Source of the DNA: an uncultured bacterium
GTDB lineage: Bacteria > Fidelibacterota > UBA2242
NCBI GenBank assembly: GCA_964441235.1
Contig: CAYTUQ010000002.1
Span: 1,705 to 65,704 of the forward strand
Length of the DNA: 64,000 bases
Direction: 5' to 3'
Shown: piece after piece, positions 26,531 to 44,200 of the stretch
How the letters are laid out: every line of letters starts with the position of its first letter
Position numbering within the stretch: the first letter of the stretch is position 1
Program-made: the position numbers and the translations under genes
Notes under the pieces: generated by a model
Databases searched by the model: none
What the model was told of the DNA's origin: nothing
Seen by the model: only the letters and a program-made list of their open reading frames with translations

Positions 26531-26717
26531 GCCGTCCCGTTTCAATATTTAAAATTGAAACTTATAAGGATATTAAAATTTCCCACAGAGGTTCCAATTG
26601 AGAATTTAGCAATACCACAATCATTTTTAAAAAGAAGCCCGGCAATTGTTTGTCAGACTTCTTCAGTATATTATCATAAACCTACAAATTTATTTTTTTA
26701 TTAATTTGGATAAAATT

Positions 26718-28551: not shown

Positions 28552-28636
28552 GCACCAATCTGTCATCCAATGGAAAGGCACAAATGAAAAAAGTGATTGG
28601 AAGTAAGTATATATGACATAGAAAATATTTAACAAT

Positions 28637-29369
28637 ATGAAGCTAATAATGAAAAGGATATTAACGCTGCTGATTTTTATGTTTTACACACTTTATTCCC
28701 ATGAAAAAATTGGGCTGGATTTTATATTCGCACATCCCAGAATCTGTTGGACTCCCCGGAAGAAATCAGATGGTCACCGGACGATTCTAAAATTGCATTC
28801 CTATGGAATAATTCAGGAGAACAATTCAGGGACATTCATCCGAGAGATAAAATGGTTACTTTATGACAATTTCCTTGCATTTAAAACTATCACCCACGAC
28901 TTGAAAAAGAGATACATCATTTTATCAAATACAAAATCAGGTGATCTGGGCACATTAATATTGCGAACACAGTAAAAAATGGATCGGCGACTTCGGAAAT
29001 AATCTCTTCTGGATTGAGAGCGGGGAAAAGATGTCATTTGGTGCCGGCAAAAATGGCTTTAACCATCTATACGCAATTCCAATCGAAAGCAGGCAGATTA
29101 TTGCTTTAACATGCGGTAAATGGAATGATATTGATTATAAAGTAGATGATTCCGGTCAGCATATTTTCTTTACCTCAACAAAAGATATCCCTAACGAACA
29201 CCACCTCTATTCTATTTCTATTACAAACGGAAAATCTGTTGATTTCATTTTCTATCCGTGTGAAAGCGATTGTATCAAATTAGATGGAAGCTATATAAAT
29301 TTATTCCAGAAGGTTTGTGAATATTTTGAAAGGAATTTAAAATGCTGCGGCGACCCACCGGAAAATTAG
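28637..29369 (+). pseudogene. Decayed N-terminal (beta-propeller) part of an S9/DPP-IV-like peptidase
   Basis: Homologous pieces lie in different frames. EEIRWSPDDSKIAFLWNNSGEQFRDIH is read in a frame other than ORF 28637-28975. ORF 29031-29369 encodes GFNHLYAIPIESRQIIALTCGKWNDIDYKVDDSGQHIFFTSTKDIPNEHHLYSISITNGK (DPPIV_N-like). No catalytic alpha/beta-hydrolase domain follows. Confidence 0.5.
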
Positions 29370-29390
29370 ATACCTGGTTTTTACTAATCT

Positions 29391-29714
29391 TCAGTTAGGC
29401 AATTTATCAGGTGGAATTGGCTGAATACCGAACGGCAAATTTCTCTCTTTATCGGGCATTTTGACTTCACCAAACTTTGACTCAAACTTAGCAATGTTGT
29501 CTCTAAGTGTATAAAGCAGAGTTTTTGCATGTATTGGAGTCATAATAATCCTGCTTTGAACGACAGCTTTGGGAGCTCCTGGCATAACTCTGGCAAAATC
29601 AATGACAAATTCTGCGCCTGAATGTGATATTACCGTAAAGTTGCTATAGTTACCTTCAGCTTTTGATTCGGGTAGCTCTATTTTTATCTGAGTAACCTGC
29701 TTTTTTTGATCCAC
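29391..29714 (-). CDS. DUF3467-family protein
   Basis: 107 aa. YSNFTVISHSGAEFVIDFARVMPG...RIIMTPIHAKTLLYTLRDNIAKFESKFGE matches my recollection of DUF3467. Confidence 0.65.
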   Translation of the reverse strand: MDQKKQVTQIKIELPESKAEGNYSNFTVISHSGAEFVIDFARVMPGAPKAVVQSRIIMTPIHAKTLLYTLRDNIAKFESKFGEVKMPDKERNLPFGIQPIPPDKLPN

Positions 29715-29752
29715 AATATCTCCTTGTTAAAAATCCCAAATTGTAAACCTGA

Positions 29753-30211
29753 TTATTTTTTCTTCTTTTTAGGTTTTTTCTTGGGTTTATCGGAAGATTC
29801 ATTTACTGAATTATCTTCATGGGATTCGTCCTCCCAATCATCAATAATTGCGATGTTATCCCCAAAAATATTCCATGCATCTTCTTCATTCTCATTTTGA
29901 AGACTTTTTTCGCGTTCTAATTCCTCTTCAAATTCGTCCCAGACTTCCTTACGCTTTTCAAACTTAGACGGATCTATTTCAGGCTCATCATAATCTTCCA
30001 GTTCTTCCTTTAACATTTCATCTCCATATAGACTCATATCAAAGAAATCTATATCATCTACTATATCATAGAAAACGAGTAACTCGAGGAAATTTAAATA
30101 TTTGGGATTTCGTAAATTTTTCTTACAGTGTGGACAAATTAAAGATTTTTTTAATTGTTCTTCCGATAATGGCTGACCACATTCTGGGCAAGCTAAATCT
30201 TCCATTGTCAC
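29753..30211 (-). CDS. Zinc-ribbon protein with acidic middle and Lys-rich tail (hypothetical)
   Basis: CPECGQ...CPHCKK zinc ribbon, highly acidic central region, KPKKKPKKKKK C-terminus. Confidence 0.5.
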   Translation of the reverse strand: MTMEDLACPECGQPLSEEQLKKSLICPHCKKNLRNPKYLNFLELLVFYDIVDDIDFFDMSLYGDEMLKEELEDYDEPEIDPSKFEKRKEVWDEFEEELEREKSLQNENEEDAWNIFGDNIAIIDDWEDESHEDNSVNESSDKPKKKPKKKKK

Positions 30212-30395
30212 TCCTCAATAATTGCGGCGGTAAATATAAACTGTTAAGCCCAGTTGGTCAAGAGAAATTTTAGATTTTTTTAATATTTTATTTTATGTAA
30301 AAATATTACTCTTAAAACGCATGAAACGCTTATTTTAATTACCTTTTATAATAAAATTCATACAGAACTTTTATATTGTGTATTACTGAAATTTT

Positions 30396-30929
30396 TCAAG
30401 TATTATTCTCAGTCGTCTGTTTATGTATAGATGTTATCAGGCTCTTTATTTGGATGTACCCGGATTCAATGGAATTATCTTCCTTCTTGTCAATTTGCAT
30501 ATTAAAACAGAAATCGGAATAATCTGATTTAAAGCCGATTCGTAATTGTACATTGCTATTATTAACGAAATATGCTGTCGTTAAATTGAAATCAATATTT
30601 AAATCAGCTGCTGCAATATAATTGTACTGAAAAATTTCTTTTACCAGACTATCTGAGGGTAGCAGAGACCTGCCAATATCAGAATTTAAAACAGGTATAA
30701 AACGGTTTGGGTCAATATTCTTGATAATCGGAAAAAATGCCTGGTGAATTATTGCCTTTATTTTAATACTATGCTCATCTATTAATGGGAAAAATACACG
30801 CTGTGCAATTTTAAATGGTATCGTATCAAATGGTAAACAAATGAGTATATATTCCTCATCTGAAGAATGCTGTGGACTGAGATTTCCGGTGCCCAATAAT
30901 TTTTTAACAGTTCGCTTTGATGTACTCAA
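30396..30929 (-). CDS. Hypothetical protein
   Basis: 177-aa ORF with no recognisable motif. First gene-sized ORF of the accessory island. Confidence 0.4.
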   Translation of the reverse strand: MSTSKRTVKKLLGTGNLSPQHSSDEEYILICLPFDTIPFKIAQRVFFPLIDEHSIKIKAIIHQAFFPIIKNIDPNRFIPVLNSDIGRSLLPSDSLVKEIFQYNYIAAADLNIDFNLTTAYFVNNSNVQLRIGFKSDYSDFCFNMQIDKKEDNSIESGYIQIKSLITSIHKQTTENNT

Positions 30930-31150
30930 TTATATCTCAATATTTTATCCTTATATCAAAATGCCTTTTTTTATATGGTACGCCTATAAGTCGAAGGGAA
31001 CGATTTTAAAAGACCTTTTTTCTTATCACTCACTAAACATTCCTTATTTTTTATTGGGTGGAAAATAAGTTATTCAGATGAAAAACAAAAGATATTTTAA
31101 ACCTGCACAGTAATTCACCAAGTTATAGGTTTTGCTCGTACCACGAAGCT

Positions 31151-31178
31151 CTGCTTCGCAAGCATATTTGCGAAGCAG
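31151..31178. repeat. Perfect 11-bp-stem GC-rich palindrome
   Basis: CTGCTTCGCAA (31151-31161), loop GCATAT, TTGCGAAGCAG (31168-31178). Partially pairing flanks (GTACCACG / CGCGGTAC). Confidence 0.8.
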
Positions 31179-31408
31179 TACGTAGGACGCGGTACATTTA
31201 TCCGTTTTAGTAAGAAGATCAGAAGACACGTCTGTGCCCGTAACTGACTCATTACCTTGCAAAACCAGGATAATGTTATCACTCATCAAACTTGTTATAT
31301 TATCTTAGATGATAAATAACAAAAGTTTTTATAGAAATTTAATTTATTGTCTTTTTACTTATTATCTGTAATTTTGTTTTCTGTGAAGATTTAAATAGGG
31401 AAATAACG

Positions 31409-31860
31409 ATGAGCATTAAAATAAAAAAGTTCGGCACTTTTGAGGGAGTTTTGACTCTACGCTCCTTGCTACTCTATTTTATTTACGGCAATAATTATAG
31501 AACTAAGCCTGCTGGTTATTCCGTAAATGATATTGGAAAAATAGATTTCTCCAAATTACGTAATGTTACAATTGGTAGGATTTTTTCTGAATTAAATATA
31601 ATTGAGCAGTGGGGACGGGAATTTACAAATATTATTGAATCTTGTAGGCAATATAAAAATATCGTTCCGGAATTCAAAGAAGAATTATTGTAGTTTAAGA
31701 TTATTTTTTGGAATAAGAAAATAGATAAAAAAGTCGGAGATAAGCTCGGAGAAAAGGTGGTCAGAAAATCTTGCAAAAAGCTAAAAATATATTAGACTTA
31801 GTTAAAACAAATCCACATATTTCAAAAAGTGAACGCACTGCGTTCAGAATTGAGCTGGAC
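31409..31860 (+). pseudogene. Frameshifted C-terminal remnant of an AlbA_2/HATPase_c_4-type (RecG-like) putative transcriptional regulator
   Basis: GRIFSELNIIEQWGREFTNIIESCRQYKNIVPEFKEE resembles the conserved ...E.WG.GI..I...C......P.F segment. Downstream, in other frames, KVGDKLGEK... and QKILQKAKNILDLVKTNPHISKSE resemble the C-terminal wHTH. The N-terminal AlbA_2 part is absent. Confidence 0.45.
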
Positions 31861-32020
31861 GCATTATAGTCTATTGTTGAAGGTAGAAATTGATGTTGTT
31901 GACCATATTATTGCCACCAAAACTGAATATTTTAGTTTTAAAGATAGAAAATTATTGCAATGTTGCTGAAAGTTTAATATTTTCATTTACCTGTATAAAT
32001 TTATACAGGAATTATAAAAT

Positions 32021-32602
32021 ATGAAAAATATAAAGGCTATAGAAATCTTACAAAATTCAGGGAAGAAGATTTTCACCCTTTCTGAAATAAAGAATATTTT
32101 AGGCATTGAGAAAGATAATACAATCTACAAAAAAGTAGAATCTTTGATAAAAGATCGGATATTAAAAAGGGCAATTAAAGGAATCTATTATTTTACTTAT
32201 AATTCACCGTCAGATTTTGAATTAGCTAATCATCTTTATCAACCGTCTTATGTCTCTCTTACTTCGGCGTTAAATTTCCATGGAATTTTAGTCCAGGTGC
32301 CATATAAAATAACTTCTGTTACTCCTAAATTAACACGGGAAATTTATATTAACGAAAAGACCTTTAAATATTCTCATATCTCAAAAGATTATTTTTGGGG
32401 ATATCAAAAAGTAGAAGGATTTCTAATTGCAGAACCAGAAAAAGCATTTTTGGATGTTCTGTTCTTTATGAGCTTGGGGAGGATTATTATAAGTTACGAT
32501 GAACTTTTGTTAGATAGGATTGATTATGAAAAATTTTCAGAAATGACCAAAAAAATTAAAAACCCTAACTTTCACAGATTTTTAAAAAAATTAAAATTAT
32601 GA
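32021..32602 (+). CDS. AbiEi-family type IV TA antitoxin / transcriptional regulator
   Basis: 193 aa with an N-terminal wHTH-like region. Its stop overlaps the start of the AbiEii gene (ATGA). Size and position are typical of AbiEi. Confidence 0.65.
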   Translation: MKNIKAIEILQNSGKKIFTLSEIKNILGIEKDNTIYKKVESLIKDRILKRAIKGIYYFTYNSPSDFELANHLYQPSYVSLTSALNFHGILVQVPYKITSVTPKLTREIYINEKTFKYSHISKDYFWGYQKVEGFLIAEPEKAFLDVLFFMSLGRIIISYDELLLDRIDYEKFSEMTKKIKNPNFHRFLKKLKL

Positions 32603-33399
32603 TTACACCTGAACAGATTCAAGATTTATCAAAAAAAAAGAGGATAAATCAAGATACTATACTGCGAGAATATCTTCAACTTTTATTTTTGCAGAATCTT
32701 TATAGCGAAAAGTTGTCACAGAAAATTTATTTTAGAGGCGGAACAGCAATTCATTTGCTTTTAGGTTCTTCACGATTTTCAATGGATTTGGATTTTACTT
32801 CAGAAATTTCTACAACTTGTCTGGAAAAATTAATAAAAAAGATTGTTGATAGAATGAATTTGGAAATTCCAGATATCAGATTAAAATCATCAAGAAAAAG
32901 AATCAATCACTCATTTTCTAAGATTCTATCCTATTATCCAAAAGAGAAGAAATACCCTGTTAATATTGCAATTGATTTCTCTTTAAGAGAAAAACCTGTG
33001 AAAAAAACTCAAATAACAGTATTGAAAACTGATTTTCCAATAAGTGGTTTACCTGTAATTTCACATCTACATTGGCAGGAAATCTTAGCAGAAAAAATCA
33101 GGGCAATCTTGATTCGTGGAAAAGGAAGAGATTTATATGATATTTATTATTTGGTTATGAAAAATATCCGCCAGCTGGCAGATTGGGATGTGGTGAAAGA
33201 AAAAATGAAGATATATCCAGAAGTTGATATTGATACAAATATGAATACTCTTATTAGTAGAATTGAAAAATTGGGAAACAAAGAGCTTAAAAATGATTTA
33301 GCCCAGTTTTTACCTGATTCTGAAAGAAATTCTCTTTTGCCAATATTGAAAGACGAGTTAATTAAAGAACTTGAAAAATATAAACAAACACGAGGATGA
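32599..33399 (+). CDS. AbiEii/AbiGii-family nucleotidyltransferase toxin
   Basis: FRGGTAIHLLLGSSRFSMDLDF (GGTAL...R.S.DLDF signature) and GKGRDLYDIYYL are both typical of AbiEii. Confidence 0.8.
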   Translation: MITPEQIQDLSKKKRINQDTILREYLQLLFLQNLYSEKLSQKIYFRGGTAIHLLLGSSRFSMDLDFTSEISTTCLEKLIKKIVDRMNLEIPDIRLKSSRKRINHSFSKILSYYPKEKKYPVNIAIDFSLREKPVKKTQITVLKTDFPISGLPVISHLHWQEILAEKIRAILIRGKGRDLYDIYYLVMKNIRQLADWDVVKEKMKIYPEVDIDTNMNTLISRIEKLGNKELKNDLAQFLPDSERNSLLPILKDELIKELEKYKQTRG

Positions 33400-33490
33400 G
33401 TTTATAATTCGGTGAAAATTATGAACAAAAATAATTACCAAAATTGGACAAATGATGCTTATAATAATTAAATAGGACCATGAAATAGTT

Positions 33491-34216
33491 ATGGATGAAA
33501 AGAGTTGGATAAAAAATAGACCGGAGTATGAAAGACCTCGTGAAAAACTTTTGAAGTTTGGTTCTAAGAATCTTTCTAATTCGGAATTACTTGCTATCTT
33601 TCTTAGAATAGGTGTTAAAGACAAAAGTGCAATTCAACTTGCAGCAGAAATATTAGAAAAATTTGGTGGGATTAGAGGAATTTGTACTGCCAAAATAGAA
33701 GATTTACTTACAATAAAAGGATTGGGTATAGCAAAGATTGCTCAATTAAAAGCAACTTTAGAACTCGCTGAAAGGTATCTTAAAGAAGATGTTAAGCAAA
33801 AATCAATTGTAGAAAGCTCAAAGGAAGTTTTAAATTATCTTCATCATTCAATGCAAGATTTAGATCATGAATTAATGAAAGTAATCCTTTTGAATGGTCA
33901 AAATCAAATAATAAATATTGTAGATTTATTTAGAGGCTCTATAAGTTCATCAAGTGTTTATCCAAGGGAGATAATCAAATTGGCTCTTAAATATTCAGCT
34001 TTAGCAATTGTTATTGTTCATAATCATCCTTCTGGAATTTCAAAACCAAGCGAAGGTGATAAAAAACTTACAAAAGAAATTATTTTTGCATGTATTTCTA
34101 CAGGTATTAAAGTTCACGACCATATAATAATTGGCAATAAAAAGCATTATAGTTTTGCTGATGAGGGAATTATTGAAGTTTACGAAAAAGAATATGAAAA
34201 GAGGATGAAACTATGA
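33491..34216 (+). CDS. radC: RadC-family JAB-domain protein
   Basis: N-terminal PEYERPREKLLKFGSKNLSNSELLAIFLRIG, HhH region (IKGLGIAKIAQLKATLEL) and JAMM motif VHNHPSG...PSEGD. Confidence 0.9.
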   Translation: MDEKSWIKNRPEYERPREKLLKFGSKNLSNSELLAIFLRIGVKDKSAIQLAAEILEKFGGIRGICTAKIEDLLTIKGLGIAKIAQLKATLELAERYLKEDVKQKSIVESSKEVLNYLHHSMQDLDHELMKVILLNGQNQIINIVDLFRGSISSSSVYPREIIKLALKYSALAIVIVHNHPSGISKPSEGDKKLTKEIIFACISTGIKVHDHIIIGNKKHYSFADEGIIEVYEKEYEKRMKL

Positions 34217-36096
34217 GTCCAGTAAAATATCAAAGAGTGGATGAAATAGAAAAAAGGGGATATTTAAGAGATTATGCAACGGGAAAATGGGTTAGGTCAA
34301 GGCCCGAAGAAGGACCAAGACAAATATTTGAAAAAAGGTTAGTTGGAGAATATGGCTACGACAAAGGTCAAATTGAAATTGAGTTCTTAATACAAAAAGG
34401 AGCTAGAAAAATCGGTCCTGCTGATATAGTTGTTTTTCACGATTCAAAAAGAAAAACATTTGATAACATAAAAATAGTGGTTGAAACAAAGAGAAAAGAA
34501 AAAAATGATGGAAAAGATCAATTAAGATCTTATTCAATATCACCATCCCAAGAATTTGCAGTTTGGTTTAACGGAAAAGACATTCTATTTCTACAGGTTC
34601 TGAAAAAAGCACCATGGTTTAGAGAAATCCCAGATATTCCTAAAAAAGGTGAGACATTAGAAGATGTAGGGCTTTATTATAAGAAGGATTTAAAACCTGC
34701 AACAGAACTGAAAACTGTTTTTGAGATTTGTCACAATTATATTTATGCAAATGAGGGACTCTTGAAAGAGAAGGTATTTAATGAGGTGCTAAAACTAATT
34801 TTTATCAAAATGGCTGATGAAAAGAAATCAAATCCCAAATGTGAGTTTAGAATTACTGACAAAGAATTAAAAGAATTAGAAGAGGGCAAAGAAAATGCAT
34901 TTGTGAATAGGATTTTGAATCTTTTTAGTGAAGTAAAAACAAGATATAGTGATGTTTTTGAGAAAAATGAAAGAATATATCTAAGACCTTTAACAATTGC
35001 CTTTATTGTCAGTCAATTCCAAAAATATAGTTTGATTAACACTAAAGCAGATGTTAAAGGAACAGCATTTCAAACATTTGTTTATGCTCATCAAAGAGGA
35101 GAGAGAGGGGAGTTCTTTACACCACATCCAATTGTTGAATTAGCAGTAAATATGCTAAATCCAAAAGACAATGAAAGATTTATTGACCCTGCTTGTGGTT
35201 CTGGCGGTTTCCTTGTTAAAGGAATGAATTATATTAAAGAAAAATTTATTAAAGATAATCCTCATAGGATAACTGAAGCAGATAAATTTATAGGTGAATA
35301 TGCACATTCTTATGTTTCTGGAATTGATATTAATCCTGATTTGGCAAAAGTTGCAAAGATGCACATGATTTTGTATGATGATGGACACACGGGAATTTTT
35401 TCAGCGAATACTTTAGAGAGTTTTGATAATTTGGTAAAAACTGCACAAGAAATGGGAGTTCCAAGAGCAATACAACCAAGACCAAATACTTTTCAAGTTT
35501 TGATGACCAATCCACCTTTTGGGACAAAGGGAAAAGTAACGAATAAAAGAATCTTGGAAAACTTTGAACTTGGCCATAAATGGAAAAACGATAAAGAAAT
35601 AGGAGGATGGATAAAAACAAATAAAATCTTGGATGGGCAAGTTCCAGATATTTTATTCATTGAGAGATGTTTGCGGTTATTGGACAATCATGGTAGAATG
35701 GCAATTGTTTTGCCTGACGGTGATTTAACAAATCAAAATACAGAGCATATAAGAGAATTTATTAAACAAAAAGCAAGATTACTGGCAGTAGTTTCTATGC
35801 CTATTGGAACATTTATGCATGCTGGAGTTAATCCAAAAGCAAGTGTATTGTTTTTACAAAAATTGGATGAAGAAAAATTAGAAGAGTTGAATAGAAAAGA
35901 TTATCCCATCTTCATGGCCATTGCTGAGAGGATAGGCTATGATTTAACAAGTAAAACACCTAAAATACTTTACAAAAGAGATGAGAAGGGAGAGATAATT
36001 AAATATAAAGAAGGAAAACCAATTATTGAATCTGATATTCCAGAAATAATAGAAGCGTTTAACGGATTCAAAAGGAAATATAACTTGAGGTTTTAA
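34213..36096 (+). CDS. hsdM: Type I-like N6-adenine DNA methyltransferase (HsdM-like) with N-terminal PD-(D/E)xK-like (HsdR_N-type) domain
   Basis: Motif I IDPACGSGGFLV, motif IV LMTNPPFGTKG. The N-terminal ~130 aa carries GPADIVVF...IKIVVETKRK (D...E-x-K arrangement). Start overlaps the radC stop (ATGA). Confidence 0.85.
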   Translation: MSPVKYQRVDEIEKRGYLRDYATGKWVRSRPEEGPRQIFEKRLVGEYGYDKGQIEIEFLIQKGARKIGPADIVVFHDSKRKTFDNIKIVVETKRKEKNDGKDQLRSYSISPSQEFAVWFNGKDILFLQVLKKAPWFREIPDIPKKGETLEDVGLYYKKDLKPATELKTVFEICHNYIYANEGLLKEKVFNEVLKLIFIKMADEKKSNPKCEFRITDKELKELEEGKENAFVNRILNLFSEVKTRYSDVFEKNERIYLRPLTIAFIVSQFQKYSLINTKADVKGTAFQTFVYAHQRGERGEFFTPHPIVELAVNMLNPKDNERFIDPACGSGGFLVKGMNYIKEKFIKDNPHRITEADKFIGEYAHSYVSGIDINPDLAKVAKMHMILYDDGHTGIFSANTLESFDNLVKTAQEMGVPRAIQPRPNTFQVLMTNPPFGTKGKVTNKRILENFELGHKWKNDKEIGGWIKTNKILDGQVPDILFIERCLRLLDNHGRMAIVLPDGDLTNQNTEHIREFIKQKARLLAVVSMPIGTFMHAGVNPKASVLFLQKLDEEKLEELNRKDYPIFMAIAERIGYDLTSKTPKILYKRDEKGEIIKYKEGKPIIESDIPEIIEAFNGFKRKYNLRF

Positions 36097-37034
36097 TGAT
36101 GGAAAAAGAAAAAATGACTTTTGAGGATTTTTGGAATCATGAAACAGAATATTTTAAAGAAACGGCAAAAGAAAGTTTTAAAAAAAATAAACAGGGAGTT
36201 GAATATTTTATAGAATATCTCGATAATTATATAGATCTATTTGGCATAAACAAGTATTACCAAAAAGATGAAATAACAAATTCTATTTCTGCTATGTTTC
36301 TCTTTTACTCCTTTAAACAATTGCGATGGGTTAATCATGAGATTCTATCAGGTGCTTATTTTGAGGCAATCAGAGATTTAAGATTTGCATTTGAAACTAT
36401 TGTTTGGGCACATTTTTTAGATGAGTGGATTAACGAAAAAACAAAAGAATACCTAAAAGTAAGTATAGGAGCAGGAATATCTTTAAAATATGAGATTTTA
36501 AAGTTAAGAGATGAGATATATGATGTCAAAGGTTATAGAAAAAAGAAAAATGAAAGAGAGAAAATAGTTAAGGAAAATGTTGGCAAATTCATAAAAAAGC
36601 ATGCCCAAGATTTTACAAACGAAGAAACGTGGAAATATAAAGAACTTTATTTTGAAATCTTGAAGAACTTGGGAGTTGGATTTACTGGAAAAAATGGATT
36701 AATTGCTAAACTTCCCTTAGAAGAGGAAGATGAAAAGAAGTTGGACAAACTTTATTCAGAATTATCAAAATATATCCATCCATCAAACAGAATAATAAAA
36801 CCGTTTTATGAAGACGATATTGGTTTAATCTTTAATTTTTGCTATAATAAAATATTATTTAATAGCTGTATGAGGTTTCTTGTAGATGTTATGGACTTAT
36901 TTTATGCCATTCTTTACGTCCATTTTGAGAAACTTAGAGAAGTGATTAAAGAAAAAATTGTAGATTTTTGTAAGGTTAATTTTAATATGGAATTTCCGAT
37001 AACTGAAAAATTAATACGGGATGACCTAGTATGA
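36096..37034 (+). CDS. Hypothetical all-alpha protein inserted between hsdM and hsdS
   Basis: 312 aa. Start overlaps the hsdM stop (TAATG) and the stop overlaps the hsdS start (ATGA). No catalytic motif recognised. RDLRFAFETIVWAHFL and LSKYIHPSN faintly recall HEPN/AbiV-like helical proteins. Confidence 0.6.
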   Translation: MMEKEKMTFEDFWNHETEYFKETAKESFKKNKQGVEYFIEYLDNYIDLFGINKYYQKDEITNSISAMFLFYSFKQLRWVNHEILSGAYFEAIRDLRFAFETIVWAHFLDEWINEKTKEYLKVSIGAGISLKYEILKLRDEIYDVKGYRKKKNEREKIVKENVGKFIKKHAQDFTNEETWKYKELYFEILKNLGVGFTGKNGLIAKLPLEEEDEKKLDKLYSELSKYIHPSNRIIKPFYEDDIGLIFNFCYNKILFNSCMRFLVDVMDLFYAILYVHFEKLREVIKEKIVDFCKVNFNMEFPITEKLIRDDLV

Positions 37035-39439
37035 TAATTTCAGAAGCAAAATTTTCAGAAGCTTATACCAAACTAAGATTTGATGCTGAATATTTTAAAA
37101 CAGAATTCATTGAAACACGATATAGATTAGAAAAAATTAATGCATCCAAACTTACTTCTATTGCTGAAATATCAAAATTAAGGAGGGATCCTACAAAAGA
37201 ATCGGATAAAGAATTTATATACATTGATATAAGCAATATTGATACATCTGTTGCTGATGTCAGTACACAGAAAATAATAGGTTATAAAGCACCAACAAGA
37301 GCGAGAAAATTAGTTCAAACAGGAGATGTTATAGTATCTACTGTACGACCGAATAGAAATGCCGTCGCAATTATACCAAAAGAATTAGATAATAGCGTTT
37401 GTTCTACAGGCTTTTGTGTTTTAAAACCGACGGAAGTAAATTTGCATTATTTGTTTGTTTTCTTAAAAACAAAATATGCAATAAATCAACTAGTAAGAGA
37501 AACTATGGCTTCTATGTATCCCGCAGTTAGTGAAGATCAAATTAAAAAGATATTGGTGTTTTTACCATCTTTTGAATTCCAGTTTCACGTAGAAAAACTC
37601 GTCAAAGAAGCATTTTCAAAACGAAAACTTGCTGATGAAAAATACAAACAAGCAAAACAACTTTTAGAAAAAGAATTAGGACTTGATAAATTAAAATTAA
37701 AAGAAGAAAAAACATTTGAAGCAAAATCATCAGAACTATTTGGAAGTAGAAGATTTGATTCTGAGTACTACAAGCCGAAGTGCAAACAAATCATAAGGTT
37801 TCTTAAAAATTCTGGGTTTGAAGTAAAGAAATTAAAAGAGATTGTAAAAATTTCAAATAAGAAAATTGACCCAACAAAGGAGCCAACCAAAAGGTTTAGA
37901 TATGTTCCAATAGCAAAGATAAATTCAAATGGAGAAATTGATGAGTGGGATGAATTTAATGGTTGGCAGGCACCAAGCAGGGCAAGAATGCTTATTAAAA
38001 AAGGGGATGTTTTAGTCTCATCATTAGGTGGTTCGCTTAACAAAATAGCATTAGTTCCTGAAGAATTAAATAATTCAATTGCTACAACAGGAACCTTTGT
38101 CATCAATTCTGAAAACTTTTATAGTGAATTCTTATTTTTATTATTCAGAACAGAACTAATCAAATTGCAGTTGGAGCGGAAAACAGCAGGTGCAATAATG
38201 ACTGCTGTTCCTAAAACAACTTTTGGAAATTTACTAATTCCAATTATTCCAAAACAAAAGCAAGAAAATATTGCAAAATTAATAAACCAATCTTTTACTT
38301 TGAGAAAAGAAGCAAAACAACTTTTAGAAGAGGCAAAAGAAAAGGTGGAAAGTATGATAGAAAATCCTTTAGAAATCTCTGAAACCCAACCCGTTCTCCG
38401 TAGTCCTGATAAAATTGGGACGAAGGGTGAACCTGAGATTATTATCCCTTTTCCTATTCCTTCAAAATTAATAAGCCTTAAACCGCCTGTCAAAGTAAAA
38501 TATAAAGATTACCAAATGCTTGATGGTTCAATAAAGAAATTGGTTCAACAAATAGGAGATGGTTCAATCATTAAAAGATTTGAAAAAACACCAATACCTA
38601 AAAGTAAAATAGATGTAGTTTGTCCTCATTTTCTTGAATTAAAATGGGCAACAGGATGTCCTTATGATTGTTCCTGGTGCTATCTGAAAGGAACTTTTAG
38701 ATTCTTGCCGTATAAAGCGAAACCACATATTAAGGATTTTGATAAGATAGAAAAACATACAAAGACATTTTTGGAATATGTTCAAACTCCTGAAGTATTA
38801 AATACAGGTGAGCTGGCAGACTCACTAATGCTTGAAGTAAAGAATAAATCATTTGTTAAGTTTATTGTTCCACTTTTTGAAAACCAAAATAAGCATAAGA
38901 TTCTCTTTTTGAGTAAATCAAACAAAATAGAAAATCTTTTATTACTTAATACACATCGTCAGGTTATAGTAAGTTTTAGTCTTAATGCTATTCCTGTGGC
39001 ACAAAGATGGGAAAAGAAAGCACCTTCAGTTGAAGACCGCATAAAAGCAGCAGGGATTCTATACAAACAACGATTTGAAGTAAGGATAAGGATAGACCCA
39101 ATGATCCCTGTGGAAAACTGGGAGCAACTTTATACTGATTTAATAGACCGCATATTTAATTCGTTTATACCTGAAAGAATTACTTTAGGTTCTCTTAGAG
39201 GATTACAGAGTACTATCAATGGAACATCAGATAAGTCCTGGGTAAAATATCTATCTGAACGCTCAAACTGGGGAAGAAAAATAGATATTAATTTAAGGCT
39301 TGCTATGTACAAAACAATTATCTCTTATTTAAATGAAAAGTATAAATATAATAAGGTCGCTCTTTGCAAAGAAACTTTGGCAATTTGGGATATACTAAAT
39401 ACGAATTATAAAAATATAAAATGTAATTGTGTGTGGTAG
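37031..39439 (+). CDS. hsdS: Type I restriction-modification specificity subunit (two TRDs) fused to a C-terminal radical-SAM-type (CX3CX2C) domain
   Basis: - aa 1-~440: two TRDs (RFDAEYF...STGFCVLKP...; RFDSEYY...TTGTFVINS...) separated and followed by the conserved S-subunit coiled-coil spacers (EKYKQAKQLLEKEL; EAKQLLEEAKEKVESMIEN).
- aa ~440-500: Pro-rich linker.
- aa ~500-802: VVCPHFLELKWATGCPYDCSWCYLKG (CX3CX2C), then an alternating beta/alpha pattern (ILFLSKSN, VIVSFSLN, RIRIDPMIP) reminiscent of SPL/COG1533-type radical SAM enzymes. Confidence 0.75.
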   Translation: MIISEAKFSEAYTKLRFDAEYFKTEFIETRYRLEKINASKLTSIAEISKLRRDPTKESDKEFIYIDISNIDTSVADVSTQKIIGYKAPTRARKLVQTGDVIVSTVRPNRNAVAIIPKELDNSVCSTGFCVLKPTEVNLHYLFVFLKTKYAINQLVRETMASMYPAVSEDQIKKILVFLPSFEFQFHVEKLVKEAFSKRKLADEKYKQAKQLLEKELGLDKLKLKEEKTFEAKSSELFGSRRFDSEYYKPKCKQIIRFLKNSGFEVKKLKEIVKISNKKIDPTKEPTKRFRYVPIAKINSNGEIDEWDEFNGWQAPSRARMLIKKGDVLVSSLGGSLNKIALVPEELNNSIATTGTFVINSENFYSEFLFLLFRTELIKLQLERKTAGAIMTAVPKTTFGNLLIPIIPKQKQENIAKLINQSFTLRKEAKQLLEEAKEKVESMIENPLEISETQPVLRSPDKIGTKGEPEIIIPFPIPSKLISLKPPVKVKYKDYQMLDGSIKKLVQQIGDGSIIKRFEKTPIPKSKIDVVCPHFLELKWATGCPYDCSWCYLKGTFRFLPYKAKPHIKDFDKIEKHTKTFLEYVQTPEVLNTGELADSLMLEVKNKSFVKFIVPLFENQNKHKILFLSKSNKIENLLLLNTHRQVIVSFSLNAIPVAQRWEKKAPSVEDRIKAAGILYKQRFEVRIRIDPMIPVENWEQLYTDLIDRIFNSFIPERITLGSLRGLQSTINGTSDKSWVKYLSERSNWGRKIDINLRLAMYKTIISYLNEKYKYNKVALCKETLAIWDILNTNYKNIKCNCVW

Positions 39440-39451
39440 AAAGGAAAGATT

Positions 39452-40549
39452 ATGTCTATTAAAGAAACAATATGGAAGATTGAACTGCACACACAGGCAA
39501 AGCATGAAATACTAAAGCGGTATCTTCAAGCGTGGCTTCCAATAATGAGTACTGTTAGTGGGCGTATTTTGTATATTGATGGCTTTGCAGGTCCAGGAAA
39601 GTATTTAGACGAAAATAATCAGCCAACTATTGATGGCTCTCCACTTGTGGCTATGAATGCAGCAATAAAGCACAAGTTACCGCTAAAGGCGGAGATAGTA
39701 TTTCTTTTAATTGAAGCAGACCCTAAAAGATTTGACTATCTTAAAAATTTGCTTTCAGAAATAACTTTTGCAGATAGTATGAAATATAAAGTAGTATGTA
39801 GTAAATTTGATGAAACTCTTACATCTATTCTAAACGACTTTGATGAGCAGAAGAAACAATTAGCTCCAACTTTTGCATTCATTGACCCATTTGGATATTC
39901 CGATACACCTCTTGCAGTTGTTAAACGAATAATGGAGAGCCCAAAGTGTGAGGTCCTTATTACATTTATGTATAGTTTTATAAAAAGAGCTATTGTCAAA
40001 CTCGACCAAGAAGATCATCTAGACATTCTTTTTGGTACCCAAGAATGGAGAAAAATTCGAGATATTGGTTATCCTTCAAAGAAACGAGAATTTGCCCAGC
40101 AACTTTATAAAAAACAATTGGAAAAGGAAGCCAATATAAAATATGTGCGTTTTTTTGAGATGATTAATAAGTTCAATCAAACTGAATATTTTTTATTTTT
40201 CGGAACTAATAGTCTTGAAGGACTTAGATATATGAATTCGTCAATGTGGAAAGTTGATCCGAGTGGAACATTTCAATTTTCTGATAGAACAAATCCTAAT
40301 CAAACAGTGCTCTTTACTCTAGAGCCTAACTATAACTTACTTAAAAGATTAATTGTCAGAGAATATAAAGGTAAAACGGTCTCAGTTGAAGAAGTTGATG
40401 AATTTGTATTAGTGGCTGGTTTCACTCATTTCAAAAAGAATATTTTGGAACCTATGGAAAGAGCAAAACCTGCTCAGATAGAAGTGATTAAGAGTAATAG
40501 GAAGAGAAGATATACTTATCCACCAAGAACTATAATTAAATTTTTGTAA
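39452..40549 (+). CDS. TcmP-like (three-Cys-motif partner protein family) protein, possible RlmJ-like methyltransferase fold
   Basis: 365 aa, 12 nt after the fusion gene and preceded by AAAGGAAAG. HTQAKHEILKRYLQAWLPIM, RILYIDGFAGPGKY, DGSPLVAMNA and FAFIDPFGYSD match my recollection of TcmP (TIGR04474) N-terminal halves. The same motif order occurs in RlmJ-type methyltransferases. Confidence 0.5.
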   Translation: MSIKETIWKIELHTQAKHEILKRYLQAWLPIMSTVSGRILYIDGFAGPGKYLDENNQPTIDGSPLVAMNAAIKHKLPLKAEIVFLLIEADPKRFDYLKNLLSEITFADSMKYKVVCSKFDETLTSILNDFDEQKKQLAPTFAFIDPFGYSDTPLAVVKRIMESPKCEVLITFMYSFIKRAIVKLDQEDHLDILFGTQEWRKIRDIGYPSKKREFAQQLYKKQLEKEANIKYVRFFEMINKFNQTEYFLFFGTNSLEGLRYMNSSMWKVDPSGTFQFSDRTNPNQTVLFTLEPNYNLLKRLIVREYKGKTVSVEEVDEFVLVAGFTHFKKNILEPMERAKPAQIEVIKSNRKRRYTYPPRTIIKFL

Positions 40550-40643
40550 AAGAATTTAAAACATATTTTGATACAAAAATTAAATTTAATATCAGGTCAG
40601 TTTTAAAGTGAAATGCTAAATAAAAATTAAGGTGAGGAATAGG

Positions 40644-40922
40644 ATGAAGAAAAATCAGAAAACTGGCTACCAATATGAAAAATCTCAAGCAAAAAAACAC
40701 CGAGGTAAACATCTTGGTGGCCCAGGAAAACCGGATTATCAAAGAGGTAAAATTAAGGGTGAAGTAAAAGACTGGAAACATCCCGTACATAGCGGAGTAA
40801 TTAAAAAAGCCATAAAAAATGGTGTAAAAGAAGTTGTAAGTAAAAGTGGTTTCACAAAACCAGCTATACAATTGGCTAAAAAGAAAAATATAAAATTTAT
40901 AAGACGAGGAAAAAAAGTTTAG
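40644..40922 (+). CDS. Mini restriction-endonuclease-like (Mrr_cat / PD-(D/E)xK) protein
   Basis: ATG at 40644 follows AAGGTGAGG. 92 aa. GYQYEKSQAKKHRGKHLGGPGKPDYQRGKIKGEVKDWKHPVHSGVIKK...VVSKSGFTKPAIQLAKKKNIKFI follows the Mrr-catalytic-domain order (G..yE...D...E-x-K...sGFT..A...A). Confidence 0.5.
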   Translation: MKKNQKTGYQYEKSQAKKHRGKHLGGPGKPDYQRGKIKGEVKDWKHPVHSGVIKKAIKNGVKEVVSKSGFTKPAIQLAKKKNIKFIRRGKKV

Positions 40923-41087
40923 AAAAAAATATAATTCTCCTATTCAGTCATTATAAATAAGATAAAAAATTTCTTATTTATAATGCAAATTTATTAGAAG
41001 CAATTGTTACTAAAAATCTTATTATTATGAAAAAAACATAGACATTTAGAGATTTGCCGATATAAGAGCAATAAATAGCATAAATGC

Positions 41088-41168
41088 AAAAGAAAAGCAA
41101 AATAGCTTTTTGAAGAAGCAAAAAGAAAAATTGAGAAGATGATTTTAAGATCATCTACAAGAAAATGA
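41088..41168 (+). pseudogene. Remnant of an hsdS 3' end (conserved C-terminal coiled-coil), copy 1
   Basis: ...KRKAK*LFEEAKRKIEKMILRSSTRK* aligns at nucleotide level with the intact RKEAKQLLEEAKEKVESMIEN region (38304-38366). The CAA codon is replaced by TAG. Confidence 0.65.
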
Positions 41169-41524
41169 CTTTATTTATAGAGAACAAAATGAATAGAGAT
41201 AAAAATATCAGAAAAATAATTTCAAGAATGGTAGAGAAAATCAAAACTGAATATCAACCAGAAAGGATAGTTCTCTTTGGTTCTTATTCTTGGGGAAAGC
41301 CAACAAGGGATAGTGATGTAGATTTACTTATTATTAAAAAGACAAATGAAAGACATTTAGAGAGAGCAATTAGGGTTAGAGAAATTGTTGATAAAGAAAA
41401 CCGAATGGTTCCACTAGATATTGTGGTATATACTCCACAAGAGCTCAAACAGAGATTGAAAGCAAGAGATTGTTTTATAAAAACAATATTAACAAAAGGA
41501 GATGTAGTTTATGAACAAGAATGA
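41165..41524 (+). CDS. MNT-type nucleotidyltransferase (type VII TA antitoxin-like)
   Basis: RIVLFGSYSWGKPTRDSDVDLLI is the minimal nucleotidyltransferase GS...D.D motif. Overlaps the downstream HEPN gene by 14 nt. An alternative ATG lies at 41189. Confidence 0.85.
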   Translation: MTLFIENKMNRDKNIRKIISRMVEKIKTEYQPERIVLFGSYSWGKPTRDSDVDLLIIKKTNERHLERAIRVREIVDKENRMVPLDIVVYTPQELKQRLKARDCFIKTILTKGDVVYEQE

Positions 41525-41894
41525 AGCATTTAGATGGTTCAAACGAGCTCAAAAAGATATTGAAGATGCAGAATTCCTCTTGAAAGAAAGCCGAACTTTA
41601 GAAAATGTAGCACTCCTTATTCAACAAGCAATTGAAAAATATCTCAAAGGATTCATAATATATCATGATTGGGAATTGGAGAAAATCCATGATTTGATAA
41701 CGCTTATTAACTATGCGAGTAAAATTGACAAATCCTTTGAGAAGTTTGTTCCTTCTCTCAGAATTATCACTAATTTCTATTTTGAAAGCCGCTATCCTAT
41801 TACCTATGAACCAGATTATACAAAAGAAGAAATAAGAGAATCTCTTAAAGAAGCAAAGAAACTTATTGCTCTAATTAAAGAAAAAGTAAAATAA
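41511..41894 (+). CDS. HEPN-domain protein (type VII TA toxin-like)
   Basis: 127 aa, all-alpha. A..D...A..L...........QQAIEKYLKGF...H.L and a FESRYP motif typical of HEPN partners of MNT. Confidence 0.8.
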   Translation: MNKNEAFRWFKRAQKDIEDAEFLLKESRTLENVALLIQQAIEKYLKGFIIYHDWELEKIHDLITLINYASKIDKSFEKFVPSLRIITNFYFESRYPITYEPDYTKEEIRESLKEAKKLIALIKEKVK

Positions 41895-42008
41895 TGCTTT
41901 GATTACTTGTTCAATCCCCTGAAGCAACAAGAAGCAAAGCAACTCTTAGAAGAAGCAAAAAGAAAAGTTGAGAAGATAATGGATAGAGAAAGTGATAAAA
42001 ACAGGTAG
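41895..42008 (+). pseudogene. Remnant of an hsdS 3' end, copy 2
   Basis: Immediately after the HEPN stop: CFDYLFNPLKQQEAKQLLEEAKRKVEKIMDRESDKNR*. The EAKQLLEEAK.KVE..M core is nearly identical to the intact hsdS spacer at 38304-38366. Confidence 0.7.
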
Positions 42009-42013
42009 GAAAA

Positions 42014-43051
42014 ATGTTTAAACCCAAATTTACATACACAAATAAAATTGTAAGGTTGCTTACCAGAATATCTGCAGCGAGAGAGATAATTCTTAATTCG
42101 CCTTTGATCCCGGGGTGGAATGTTACATTAAGGCAGGAAGCAATAATCCACAGTGCTCATTCGTCCACGCGTATTGAGGGAAATAGATTATCATTGGAAC
42201 AAGTAAGCGAATTATCTCTTGGAAGAGAAGTAATGGCGACTCGAAGAGATAAACAGGAAGTTTTGAACTATCTGAATGTGCTAAAAAATATTGATAAGCT
42301 GATAAAAGGAAATTCTATAAGTGAGAAAGATATCTTAAATATTCACCGTATGGTAACAGAAGACACATTAGACAATTCTAATGATTGTGGGGTTTATCGT
42401 AACCGTTATGTTGTGGTTGGAAATAGATTTACAGGGGAGATTTTCTTTAAGCCACCGCAAAATGAGGATGTTCCCGGGTTAATAGAAGATTTGATTGAAT
42501 GGATAAACTCTGAGGAATCAAAATCACTCGAGCCTGTTATTGAAGCGGGTATTGAGCATTATGAATTTGTCAGAATTCATCCTTTTGTTGATGGTAATGG
42601 GAGAACTGCAAGAGTTCTGGCAACTTTGATTCTCTACATGCGAGATTTCGACACAAAACAATTTTTTTGCCTTGATGATTATTACGATTCTGATAGACAA
42701 GCATACTATTTAGCATTACAAAGTGTTAAACAAGACACATTAGACCTGACAAACTGGTTGGAATATTTTGTCGAGGGAGTAAGTGTAAGCACTGAGGCTG
42801 TCAAAGAAAGAGTGATAAGGTTAAGTAGTGAGAGACTGAGAAGATCAAAAGGCGGGCAAATAGCTTTAACCGAAAGACAGATAAGAATTGTGGAATTTAT
42901 TAATAAAAATGGTAAAATAACTAATAGAGATGTACGGGGAATGTTTAAACTTTCGGATGAAGGTGCATTGAGAGAGATTAAAAAACTAATGGTGTTGAAA
43001 GTTATTCAAAGCCAGGGTAAAGGGAGAGGGTTGCATTATGTCCTTAAATAA
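42014..43051 (+). CDS. Fic-family protein (AMPylase-type) with C-terminal wHTH
   Basis: HPFVDGNGRTARVLATL is the Fic motif HxFx(D/E)GNGRxxR. Fic_N-like N-terminus (STRIEGN). C-terminal LTERQIRIVEFINKNGKITNRDV is a wHTH. Confidence 0.9.
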   Translation: MFKPKFTYTNKIVRLLTRISAAREIILNSPLIPGWNVTLRQEAIIHSAHSSTRIEGNRLSLEQVSELSLGREVMATRRDKQEVLNYLNVLKNIDKLIKGNSISEKDILNIHRMVTEDTLDNSNDCGVYRNRYVVVGNRFTGEIFFKPPQNEDVPGLIEDLIEWINSEESKSLEPVIEAGIEHYEFVRIHPFVDGNGRTARVLATLILYMRDFDTKQFFCLDDYYDSDRQAYYLALQSVKQDTLDLTNWLEYFVEGVSVSTEAVKERVIRLSSERLRRSKGGQIALTERQIRIVEFINKNGKITNRDVRGMFKLSDEGALREIKKLMVLKVIQSQGKGRGLHYVLK

Positions 43052-43122
43052 GGTTGGCGATTAGGTTGGCGATTAGGTTGGCGATTAGGTTGATGATTAG
43101 GTTGATGATTAGGTTGATGATT
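43052..43122. repeat. 12-bp tandem repeat, 6 units (AGGTTGGCGATT x3, AGGTTGATGATT x3)
   Basis: Read directly. The array starts at the Fic stop codon. Confidence 0.95.
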
Positions 43123-43254
43123 TGACAATTTTATTTTGTCTAAATTTACCCTACAACGTCATTTGTCGCAGACATCTCTTTGAGATAGCAAATCAGGCAA
43201 ATGCCTGATATAGTTCGTACCATCAACTGTAAATACTACATCCGGTATATTTAA

Positions 43255-43318
43255 GGGGGTGTGATAGAATGAAGTTTTCACTCAGTCAACTTACTAAAGG
43301 TTATATTATCACACCCCC
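43255..43318. repeat. Second copy of the GGGGGTGTGATA / TATCACACCCCC inverted-repeat pair (40-nt spacer)
   Basis: GGGGGTGTGATA at 43255-43266 and TATCACACCCCC at 43307-43318. The flank AACTTCATTCTATCACACCCCC (reverse complement of 43255-43276) resembles 6492-6513. Confidence 0.8.
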
Positions 43319-43360
43319 TAAATTTTTATATTACGTAGTAGGGTTAATAGTGGTGTAATA

Positions 43361-44200
43361 ATGAAACGATTATATTTTCAAAGAAATCTTTTTAGAATCC
43401 TTTGCATACTACCAGTTCTTATCTTCTTCTCATTTACTTCTGCTGCTCAGATAGATACTGTCGAAATTAAAAGTGAAGCGATGCAGAAGTCGCCAAAAGC
43501 GGTTGTAGTATTGCCTGAAAAATATTTAAGCAGCGACAGCAATTTCCCCGTACTCTATCTCTTACACGGTTGGAGTGGATGTTATGGGGATTGGAGCAAG
43601 CATATAGATTTGCGTCCTTTAGCGGATGAATACAATTTGATAATTGTCTGTCCTGACGGCGGTTATGCCGGCTGGTATATAGATAGTCCTCTGGTTGAAG
43701 ATTCTCAATATGAAACCTATATTTCCAATGAAGTGGTTGCTTTTGTTGATAAAAATTATAGAACAATTGAAAAGACAGATGGCAGGGTGATTTGTGGTTT
43801 AAGTATGGGTGGGCATGGTGCGATTAGTCTGCTTGCCAAACATCCTGATATTTACTGTGCTGCGGGAAGTATGAGTGGCGTAATGGAATTGACTTCATCA
43901 AGTAAAAAATACGGGCTTACTAATTTGCTTGGTGATTACAGGACGAATAAAAATAAGTGGAGAAAGAATTCTTGTATTAATTTGGCTGGTAAATTAGTTG
44001 GGAAAAATAGAGGAGTTATTATTGATTGCGGTGTAGATGATTTTCTCGTTAAAGGTAATAGGAAAATGCACAAGAAACTTCTGAAATTGAAGATAGAACA
44101 CGATTATTATGAGAGAACGGGGAAACACAGTTGGAGCTATTGGACAAATGCTCTGGAATACCATATTTTATTTTTTAGCAAGTTTTTAAGGCATGAATAG
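43361..44200 (+). CDS. Secreted esterase-family alpha/beta hydrolase (esterase D / putative-esterase family)
   Basis: Signal peptide. YLLHGWSG..., nucleophile elbow GLSMGGHGA, C-terminal H in GKHSW. Typical of the PF00756-type esterase pattern. Confidence 0.8.
   Translation: MKRLYFQRNLFRILCILPVLIFFSFTSAAQIDTVEIKSEAMQKSPKAVVVLPEKYLSSDSNFPVLYLLHGWSGCYGDWSKHIDLRPLADEYNLIIVCPDGGYAGWYIDSPLVEDSQYETYISNEVVAFVDKNYRTIEKTDGRVICGLSMGGHGAISLLAKHPDIYCAAGSMSGVMELTSSSKKYGLTNLLGDYRTNKNKWRKNSCINLAGKLVGKNRGVIIDCGVDDFLVKGNRKMHKKLLKLKIEHDYYERTGKHSWSYWTNALEYHILFFSKFLRHE

Follow-up and report, generated by a model that had tools for sequence, protein, structure and literature searches.

A cluster of defence and toxin-antitoxin genes around a putative type IIB-like restriction-modification operon in an uncultured Fidelibacterota bacterium, with leftover hsdS gene ends

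Defence islands without a recombinase are common, and the mode in which they grow is poorly understood. One described arrangement is the embedding of defence genes in restriction-modification (RM) loci, as for TgvAB inside the type I RM operon of VPI-2 (PMC11411939) and for the 'embedded' defences of Payne et al. (bioRxiv 10.1101/2024.01.29.577857). Among RM enzymes, the type IIB enzyme BsaXI has an RM subunit with an N-terminal PD-(D/E)xK domain and acts as (RM)2S together with an HsdS-like subunit (PMC11997821), and the methylation-associated defence system (MADS) comprises mad1-mad8, with MAD6-8 being mandatory in the detection model of its authors (bioRxiv 10.1101/2023.03.30.534895). Here, we analyzed a DNA stretch of 64,000 nucleotides (the window; contig CAYTUQ010000002.1, positions 1,705 to 65,704, assembly GCA_964441235.1) from an uncultured bacterium of the Fidelibacterota lineage UBA2242. 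It contains a cluster of anti-phage and toxin-antitoxin (TA) genes of about 12 kb without mobility genes, which extends from 30947 to 43051-43330. This island belongs to the known kind of defence genes embedded in RM loci, and its leftover gene ends record its assembly.

The clustering of several independent defence and TA systems makes the region a defence island (Table 1). PADLOC and Pfam located AbiE, a methyltransferase and its specificity subunit, PDC-M30A, PDC-S09/MNT, HEPN, and SoFic within 11 kb. A first-pass annotation, made by a model from the letters and open reading frames (ORFs) of the window, had named AbiEi/AbiEii, MNT/HEPN and Fic and had described all recognized genes from AbiEi onward as co-oriented; Pfam and PADLOC confirmed these genes, and all of them lie on the plus strand. 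Like the described embedded-defence loci, the island nests several unrelated co-oriented defence and toxin modules in and beside an RM operon, without mobility genes of its own. It differs from them in its host operon, which appears to be type IIB-like instead of type I, Hma or BREX, and in that a leftover 3′ end stands in front of each module, derived from the gene which the module follows elsewhere, with one insertion having given a fusion of the specificity (S) subunit to a radical-SAM (rSAM) domain. With moderate confidence, we regard the region as a composite defence island that was acquired horizontally and is now immobile, in which modules were stacked on an RM scaffold.

Table 1. Features of the island and its edges, with positions in the window.
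Feature	Position	Strand	Characteristics
orf177, 177 aa	30396..30929	-	Core gene outside the island (tblastn synteny in metagenome contigs of relatives)
AT-rich non-coding left edge	30947..31408		L089 homology ends at 30946; no Pfam/Rfam match
Decayed regulator remnant	31409..31870	+	HATPase_c_4 fragment (ORF 31409-31693), KVGDKLGEK linker, out-of-frame HTH-like pieces
Possible RadC 3′-end remnant IDVVDHIIATKTEYFSFKDRKLL	31880..31951	+	Directly upstream of AbiEi; Pfam RadC E 0.005, positions 97-120 of 121
AbiEi	32021-32602	+	PADLOC 2.1e-32
AbiEii	32599-33399	+	PADLOC 8e-35; Pfam 2.9e-26
RadC, full length, UPF0758_N + JAB	33491..34216	+	Pfam 5.9e-40, 1.1e-27; NCBIfam PRK00024 248 bits, cutoff 180
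RM subunit, 627 aa	34213..36096	+	HSDR_N_2 nuclease-like N-terminus + gamma-class N6-adenine methyltransferase
unk312, 312 aa, all-alpha	36096..37034	+	Between RM and S genes, coupled
HsdS part of 802-aa fusion ORF	37031..38395	+	Two target recognition domains (TRDs) + conserved regions; Pfam Methylase_S, 2 stretches; PADLOC Specificity_I 5e-45
SPL-like radical-SAM domain	38396..39439	+	In-frame fusion to HsdS; Pfam SPL 1.5e-15; CPYDCSWC, C-terminal CNCVW
TcmP, three-Cys-motif partner	39452..40549	+	TIGR04474 218.9 bits, cutoff 53; PADLOC PDC-M30A 3e-60
mini96, 96 aa, small basic	40632..40922	+	Pfam Mrr_cat E 0.0064, below cutoff
Orphan hsdS 3′ tail 1, K*LFEEAKRKIEKMILRSSTRK*	41092..41168	+	TGA stop overlaps MNT ATG as ATGA
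MNT	41165-41524	+	Pfam NTP_transf_2 3.9e-12
HEPN	41511-41894	+	Pfam 4.5e-24; 14-nt overlap with MNT
Orphan hsdS 3′ tail 2, QEAKQLLEEAKRKVEKIMDRESDKNR*	41907..42008	+	Ends 6 nt before Fic start
Fic, C-terminal winged helix-turn-helix (wHTH)	42014..43051	+	Pfam Fic 4.9e-22; PADLOC SoFic 6e-58; HPFVDGNGR, N-terminal STRIEGN
12-bp tandem array AGGTTGGCGATT	43051..43116		5.5 copies, 96% matches, TRF score 104; starts at Fic stop codon
64-bp mini copy, dispersed MITE/REP-like element	43255..43318		GGGGGTGTGATA terminal inverted repeats 43255-43266 + 43307-43318

The assembly of the island can be read from hsdS gene ends. Three cassettes each stand directly behind an hsdS 3′ end, which is intact in one case and orphaned in two. 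The two orphan tails are 86% identical to each other and about 76-78% identical to the resident hsdS end, and the three tails represent the sole direct-repeat family of at least 40 nt in the window. In the alignment, their homology begins abruptly at codons of a conserved region. The ATGA overlap between the first orphan tail and the MNT gene is an arrangement typical of coupled genes.

A comparator locus (L180), present on a contig from a different metagenome and found through a homologue of unk312, carries RadC, the 627-aa RM subunit and unk312 at 74% nucleotide identity over 2.7 kb, with a G+C of the module of 0.36. There, HsdS is a stand-alone protein of 446 aa which ends with ...EAKTEVEELIEGV*, and the MNT gene overlaps the hsdS stop codon; between the two loci, the MNT proteins share 43% identity. 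Compared with L180, the window contains about 2.7 kb extra between hsdS and MNT, comprising the rSAM domain, TcmP, and mini96, and the first orphan tail (41092-41168) is what remains of the former hsdS end. TRD1 of the window corresponds to TRD2 of L180 (54% identity), a match that reads as ordinary hsdS domain shuffling. Because L180 is free of the rSAM-TcmP insert and orphan gene ends precede MNT and Fic, assembly by cassette accretion, proposed earlier on the basis of hsdS remnants, is supported. A possible fourth case of the leftover gene ends is the RadC 3′-end remnant before AbiEi, for which there is moderate support: its Smith-Waterman score against the island RadC was 48, as compared to a mean of 28.5 (sd 4.4, maximum 45) for 200 shuffles.

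According to this reading, a four-gene coupled operon of RadC, the RM subunit, unk312 and HsdS would form the scaffold, which needs no HsdR, and self-contained modules of one or two genes would have been added around and into it, either in this genome or in donors. AbiEi/AbiEii would have been placed upstream, behind the RadC 3′ remnant, while rSAM/TcmP, with the 96-aa ORF, would have been inserted at the hsdS 3′ end, whereby rSAM became fused in frame to HsdS. MNT-HEPN would have come next, behind one orphan hsdS tail, and Fic last, behind the other. The hsdS ends and the pre-insertion state in L180 point to homologous or illegitimate recombination at conserved ends of RM genes as the growth mechanism; the conserved hsdS 3′ coding segment, and perhaps also radC, would thereby have served without a dedicated recombinase. 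A layered function can be envisaged, in which restriction of unmethylated DNA is followed by the abortive-infection and toxin modules, and in which rSAM-TcmP may take part in the modification or sensing of nucleic acids. Of most value as leads are the unique S-rSAM fusion and the orphan hsdS tails, the latter as a testable model for how an island can grow without a recombinase.

The stop and start codons of RadC, the RM subunit, unk312 and HsdS overlap (34213/34216, 36096, and 37031/37034), and the four genes therefore form one translationally coupled operon. In the RM subunit, Pfam detected HSDR_N_2 (1.8e-16; PAD...ETK) and N6_Mtase (1.3e-34; FIDPACGSGGF, NPPF), with motifs that are also found in L180. 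Among solved structures, the best match is the type IIB enzyme RM.BsaXI (9e-25), and PADLOC assigned the subunit to MTase_II (3.7e-114). Neither a helicase nor a ResIII-type ORF as candidate for HsdR was present among the scanned ORFs of the island and the rest of the window. Because of the RM fusion, RM.BsaXI as best solved relative, the separate S subunit, and the absence of HsdR from the window, we read the scaffold as a type IIB-like (BcgI/BsaXI-like) RM system with predicted cleavage and not as type I. As in BcgI and BsaXI, an RM polypeptide with an N-terminal PD-(D/E)xK-type domain followed by a gamma-class N6-adenine methyltransferase is combined with a separate two-TRD HsdS-like subunit, without HsdR. 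In contrast, the island subunit has 627 aa as compared to 916 aa in BsaXI, the C-terminal 'paddle' of BsaXI is unmatched, and the operon also has RadC and the conserved 312-aa gene. With type I systems it shares the two-TRD HsdS, but without the HsdR motor-nuclease in the locus. The operon had earlier been described as HsdM / unknown / HsdS-rSAM / TcmP-like / mini-nuclease; these genes are present, while the first of them is better read as a type IIB-like RM subunit than as type I and the last as a nuclease is only a lead.

The RM and S subunits also match the MAD2 and MAD5 models of MADS over their full length. However, the scores were below the NCBIfam cutoffs (MAD2, 476 bits vs 720; MAD5, 134 vs 400), and PADLOC found only mad2 and mad5, without MAD6, MAD7, and MAD8. 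Identity of the scaffold with MADS was therefore rejected.

The two further genes of the operon are both shared with L180, where RadC is tied to the same methyltransferase and the unk312 copy has the same position and is 77% identical. No match to unk312 was obtained in Pfam, NCBIfam, or PADLOC; among 5.8 billion proteins it has 6 close homologues, with 185 representatives at E<=1e-3, and some of its relatives gave sub-threshold matches to DUF5677. With respect to structure, there was no sequence match in the PDB, the AlphaFold 2 (AF2) model reached a confidence score (pLDDT) of 62, and the Foldseek matches, with E-values of 0.24 or worse, are meaningless. Altogether, a possible variant of type IIB systems with two conserved accessory genes, namely RadC and a rare all-alpha protein, is suggested.

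The fusion ORF of HsdS and rSAM (37031-39439) encodes 802 aa, with CPYDCSWC at residues 543-550, and several assemblies made independently from this population, which match the window at 99.8-100%, also gave this ORF. The rSAM domain has at least 1983 homologues, the best of which are 60-81% identical. The best 120 homologues all have a length of 305-532 aa and none carries Methylase_S, and because none of them is fused, the HsdS-rSAM fusion is peculiar to this lineage. An in-frame ATG at residue 442 makes a stand-alone product of 361 aa possible. The fusion could be an accident of the insertion or a functional tether, of which we consider the tether quite unlikely. The locus puts a widespread rSAM/TcmP pair physically on a DNA specificity subunit and provides a concrete hypothesis for the substrate of the pair. 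Low probability is assigned to two readings which go beyond stacking on the scaffold. In the first, a functional HsdS-rSAM fusion would bring an SPL-like enzyme and TcmP to defined DNA sequences, and a sequence-specific non-methyl DNA modification or lesion would then be part of an RM system. In the second, which is more general, the conserved hsdS 3′ segment would be a recombinase-independent docking site for the capture and stacking of defence cassettes.

The assignment of the downstream gene as TcmP-like was borne out by the TIGR04474 score, which lies well above the cutoff. According to the AF2 model (pLDDT 86.7), TcmP would adopt an RlmJ-like Rossmann methyltransferase fold with a C-terminal winged helix; the best fold match in the PDB is RlmJ (6qe5, an rRNA m6A methyltransferase; E 3e-6), with further class I SAM methyltransferases ranking next. 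The motifs DGFAGPG and DPFG are invariant in 32 TcmP sequences. A GMT-wHTH match in TcmP (E 0.0013, below cutoff) was taken as a generic winged helix and not as evidence of a Gamma-Mobile-Trio. As in the known pair of TcmP and a three-Cys rSAM protein (TIGR04474; PADLOC candidate PDC-M30), the island TcmP adjoins an SPL-like rSAM domain with CxxxCxxC. In contrast to the typical partner, which is a stand-alone protein of ~330 aa, the island rSAM is fused to the C-terminus of HsdS. No published function of the rSAM/TcmP pair was found in the literature searched.

rSAM and TcmP are also adjacent in five further loci (L169, L170, L172, L182, and L186) and three IMG/VR contigs, with neighbours that vary by locus. 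The pair represents a mobile cassette that is self-contained, and its predicted function is directed at nucleic acids. In L172, a 976-aa type IIG-like methyltransferase is located upstream of rSAM-TcmP. In L182, which has the closest rSAM homologue, the C-terminus of a type IIG enzyme was suspected in the upstream gene; this gene gave no Pfam match and showed no similarity to the L172 enzyme. As to mini96, the ORF called earlier as mini-nuclease is present, and a minimal PD-(D/E)xK protein is possible, the nuclease assignment being a lead given by the Mrr_cat match below cutoff; mini96 was absent beside rSAM-TcmP in every other fetched locus.

Related genes were also observed in phages and on predicted viral contigs. 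In Gordonia phages, TcmP-like genes adjoin the immunity repressor. In phage ThankyouJordi (L181, 3263-5089), a TcmP homologue (32% identity, annotated as methyltransferase) directly follows the immunity repressor in the same orientation, with no SPL-like rSAM annotated adjacent to it. On the predicted viral contigs L187 (7941-11321) and L189 (3342-6739), a divergently oriented TcmP lies beside a tandem pair of SPL-like rSAM paralogues, which share 61% and 37% identity with the domain of the window.

The composition of the island is foreign. The G+C of 30947-41900 is 0.302, while 120 other 11-kb stretches of the window have 0.341-0.382, and the block from AbiEi to HEPN represents the lowest-GC 11 kb of the window. 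The G+C at third codon positions (GC3) is 0.16-0.25 for the eleven genes from AbiEi to HEPN, as compared to a mean of 0.296 (sd 0.041) for 41 other ORFs. Tetranucleotide usage across 30-41 kb is likewise at an increased distance from that of the remaining window. The first-pass annotation had judged the G+C to be similar to the surroundings and the island to be ameliorated; the former statement is wrong and the latter is unsupported.

In its original version, the proposal was an old resident island whose composition had ameliorated to that of the host and in which all accretion had occurred in situ. The decayed fragments (the HATPase_c_4 piece, the RadC tail, and the hsdS tails with stops), the lack of mobility genes, the host-like G+C of Fic, and the match of 99.8-100% of the island in all conspecific assemblies would fit such a history. 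However, the AbiEi-HEPN block with the lowest G+C, a GC3 ~2 sd below the background and distinct tetranucleotides argue against amelioration, and the decayed pieces could have come in already decayed, which makes this version unlikely overall.

The left junction was located by synteny. The core trio orf177, Zn-ribbon protein and DUF3467 lies on the left of the island and an esterase gene on the right. A metagenome search with the neighbouring DUF3467 protein as query gave 80 loci, and the order orf177, Zn-ribbon protein, DUF3467, and then DPP-IV on the opposite strand was kept in about 40 of them (tblastn). Because of this conserved order, orf177 is a core gene; it had been listed as an orphan ORF and as the first gene of the island. 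The closest relative (L089, Ga0180301_10110620, which represents a sister lineage) has 92% nucleotide identity to window positions 29326-30946 and diverges fully beyond, and the left edge of the variable DNA was therefore revised from 30396 to ~30947. The 60 nt of L089 past the junction gave no window match above shuffled scores. In family-level relatives, the place beside orf177 is taken by other genes without a defence-like appearance, such as one for a predicted D-Ala-D-Ala dipeptidase. A VanX-like dipeptidase remnant at 43143-43205, indicated by a weak tblastn match, was rejected, as a profile of 15 relatives gave E=83.

These loci also bear on the idea of vertically inherited, lineage-specific DNA, in which the low G+C would stem from a tendency of defence genes to be AT-rich. 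In its favour, the window has further patches of low G+C (e.g., 55.7-60.7 kb), and some core genes have a GC3 of 0.21-0.25. The complete divergence of the 92%-identical L089 at 30946, the absence of any island genes beside orf177 in family-level relatives, and the different G+C (0.36) of the scaffold module in L180 speak against it and render it highly improbable.

Signatures of mobility were searched for at several levels. The window contains no tRNA or tmRNA and no phage structural genes were found in it, and no integrase, transposase or relaxase domains were detected in the scanned ORFs of at least 110 aa between 0.3 and 62 kb. Flanking direct repeats were absent, with the sharing of 9-mers between the two edges being at the shuffled expectation. 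A candidate att repeat (30273-30301 and 43116-43144; 29 nt, 76% identical, AT-rich) was rejected, since the core gene orf177 falls inside it and the sharing of 9-mers at the true edges is that of chance. Rfam gave no match over 28-45 kb, the promoter and terminator scans remained at chance level, and an integron-type array was not indicated by any integrase domain in the window, while attC sites were not specifically searched for. The earlier statement that there is no integrase, transposase, tRNA or att site thus holds across the scanned 64 kb, including the DNA outside the borders assumed at that time.

These results are relevant for a possible origin of the region as the remnant of an integrative mobile element, e.g., a small integrative mobilizable element or a prophage fragment, whose integrase and att sites were deleted or are unrecognizable. 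Junk and decayed regulator fragments at the left edge (30947-32020), the occurrence of TcmP and rSAM-TcmP on phages or predicted viral contigs, and the foreign composition are compatible with such an origin. Against it stand the searches of the 64 kb, which gave no tRNA or direct repeat and neither phage structural genes nor any integrase, transposase or relaxase, the lack of RM subunit relatives on 2.9 million viral contigs, and the internal architecture, which RM-anchored stacking accounts for; we give this origin a small chance.

An assembly chimera joining unrelated contigs at repeats is practically negligible as an explanation. Logan contigs break at 31556, 31590, 43177, and 43300, which might be taken as a sign of such joints. 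However, the JGI contig L174 covers 27914-44064 at 99.8% identity and crosses both junctions, L175 and L176 overlap both junctions at 100%, and the independent JGI and Logan assemblies agree with the window at 99.8-100%; the island is therefore no assembly artefact. The Logan contigs also break at 26783, inside an unrelated 160-nt inverted repeat (16445-16604 and 26686-26845; 83% complementary), so that the breaks reflect short repeats. For the same reason, and because JGI contigs span the junctions, the breaks at 31556/31590 and 43177/43300 were rejected as borders of the island.

Several points weigh against a horizontally acquired island stacked on a type IIB-like scaffold. The recombination at hsdS tails is deduced from end states, with L180 as one comparator locus of unknown genomic context, and the RadC remnant consists of 24 residues. 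An HsdR may be encoded elsewhere in the genome, outside the window. The G+C of Fic is host-like (GC 0.360, GC3 0.301), and this gene may be an older or separate acquisition; the GC3 gap of the other genes amounts to ~2 sd, and a few core genes fall in the island range (some with GC3 of 0.21-0.25). At the left junction, L089 extends only 60 nt into the diverged DNA. No empty site was present among the fetched relatives and no contig joins both flanks, so that the proposed synteny comparison yielded the left junction via L089 and no empty site. In all fetched relatives, synteny with the left flank was lacking for the right flank (esterase, ADH, OTCase), which leaves the insertion event presumed and the right border as a range, from 43052 to ~43330. 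A scan of genome contigs with the flanking aminotransferase gave as best matches Chloroflexota genes at 64% identity and no close relatives.

The smaller modules were compared with described TA systems. AbiEi is located directly upstream of the nucleotidyltransferase gene AbiEii with a 4-nt overlap, as in a type IV TA or abortive-infection pair. AbiE (type IV TA), MNT-HEPN (type VII TA) and the SoFic-type Fic protein resemble the known systems in their domains, gene order, overlapping pairs, and the HPFxxGNGR motif of Fic. All island members, in contrast, are below the NCBIfam equivalog cutoffs (AbiEi, 47 bits with a cutoff of 150; MntA, 29 with 60; SoFic, 82 with 550) and are distant family members of predicted function.

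Within the AT-rich left edge, a GC-rich patch (0.40; 31074-31289) has a perfect 11-bp hairpin, CTGCTTCGCAA-GCATAT-TTGCGAAGCAG, and gave no match in Rfam or Pfam. The decayed regulator that follows had been assigned to the AlbA_2 type. A decayed regulator is indeed present, as shown by the HATPase_c_4 fragment (Pfam E 6.7e-8 and 3.4e-8, profile positions 23-89 of 89), while no AlbA_2 domain was detectable by Pfam in the frames of the left edge.

At the right edge, the 12-bp tandem array described before is real and its sequence is unique in the window. The GGGGGTGTGATA palindrome pair next to it is also real. There are five motif matches of GGGGGTGTGATA in the window, with 0.09 expected, and a second copy of the element has 275 bp (6239-6513). 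Because the pair also bounds this 275-bp element, it is a dispersed repeat and neither an island edge, as which it had been listed, nor an att site. A half-site of GGGGGTGTGATA with one mismatch is located at 56946.

Tetrapeptide-repeat linkers occur in the family of the decayed regulator. The DNA of its KVGDKLGEK linker (31728-31763) resembles the 12-bp array after Fic (64% identity), which reads VGD*VGD* in one frame, and the array may be a dead linker.

Further observations were made in the flanks. The DPP-IV gene left of the island (28637-29369) is a frameshifted pseudogene with two 112-aa ORF fragments, and relatives have DPP-IV-like sequence at the same position. In the family-level relatives L093, L099, L101, L105, L109, and L111, a TonB/ExbD/ExbB cluster directly follows DPP-IV. 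In the window, TonB/ExbD/ExbB (2643-4768) lies 24 kb from DPP-IV (28.6 kb), with ~24 kb of housekeeping genes (RNase G, L21, AspRS, PhoH, and others) interposed or rearranged. A different Fic-domain protein of 534 aa is encoded directly upstream of DUF3467 in a distant relative (L135, 2969-4570; L136, 133-1734); its match to the island Fic is limited to the Fic core (41% over 63 aa) and is probably a coincidence. Finally, six consecutive co-oriented ORFs of 143-232 aa at 55717-60740, with a G+C of 0.31-0.34 and no Pfam match, may form a second accessory region.

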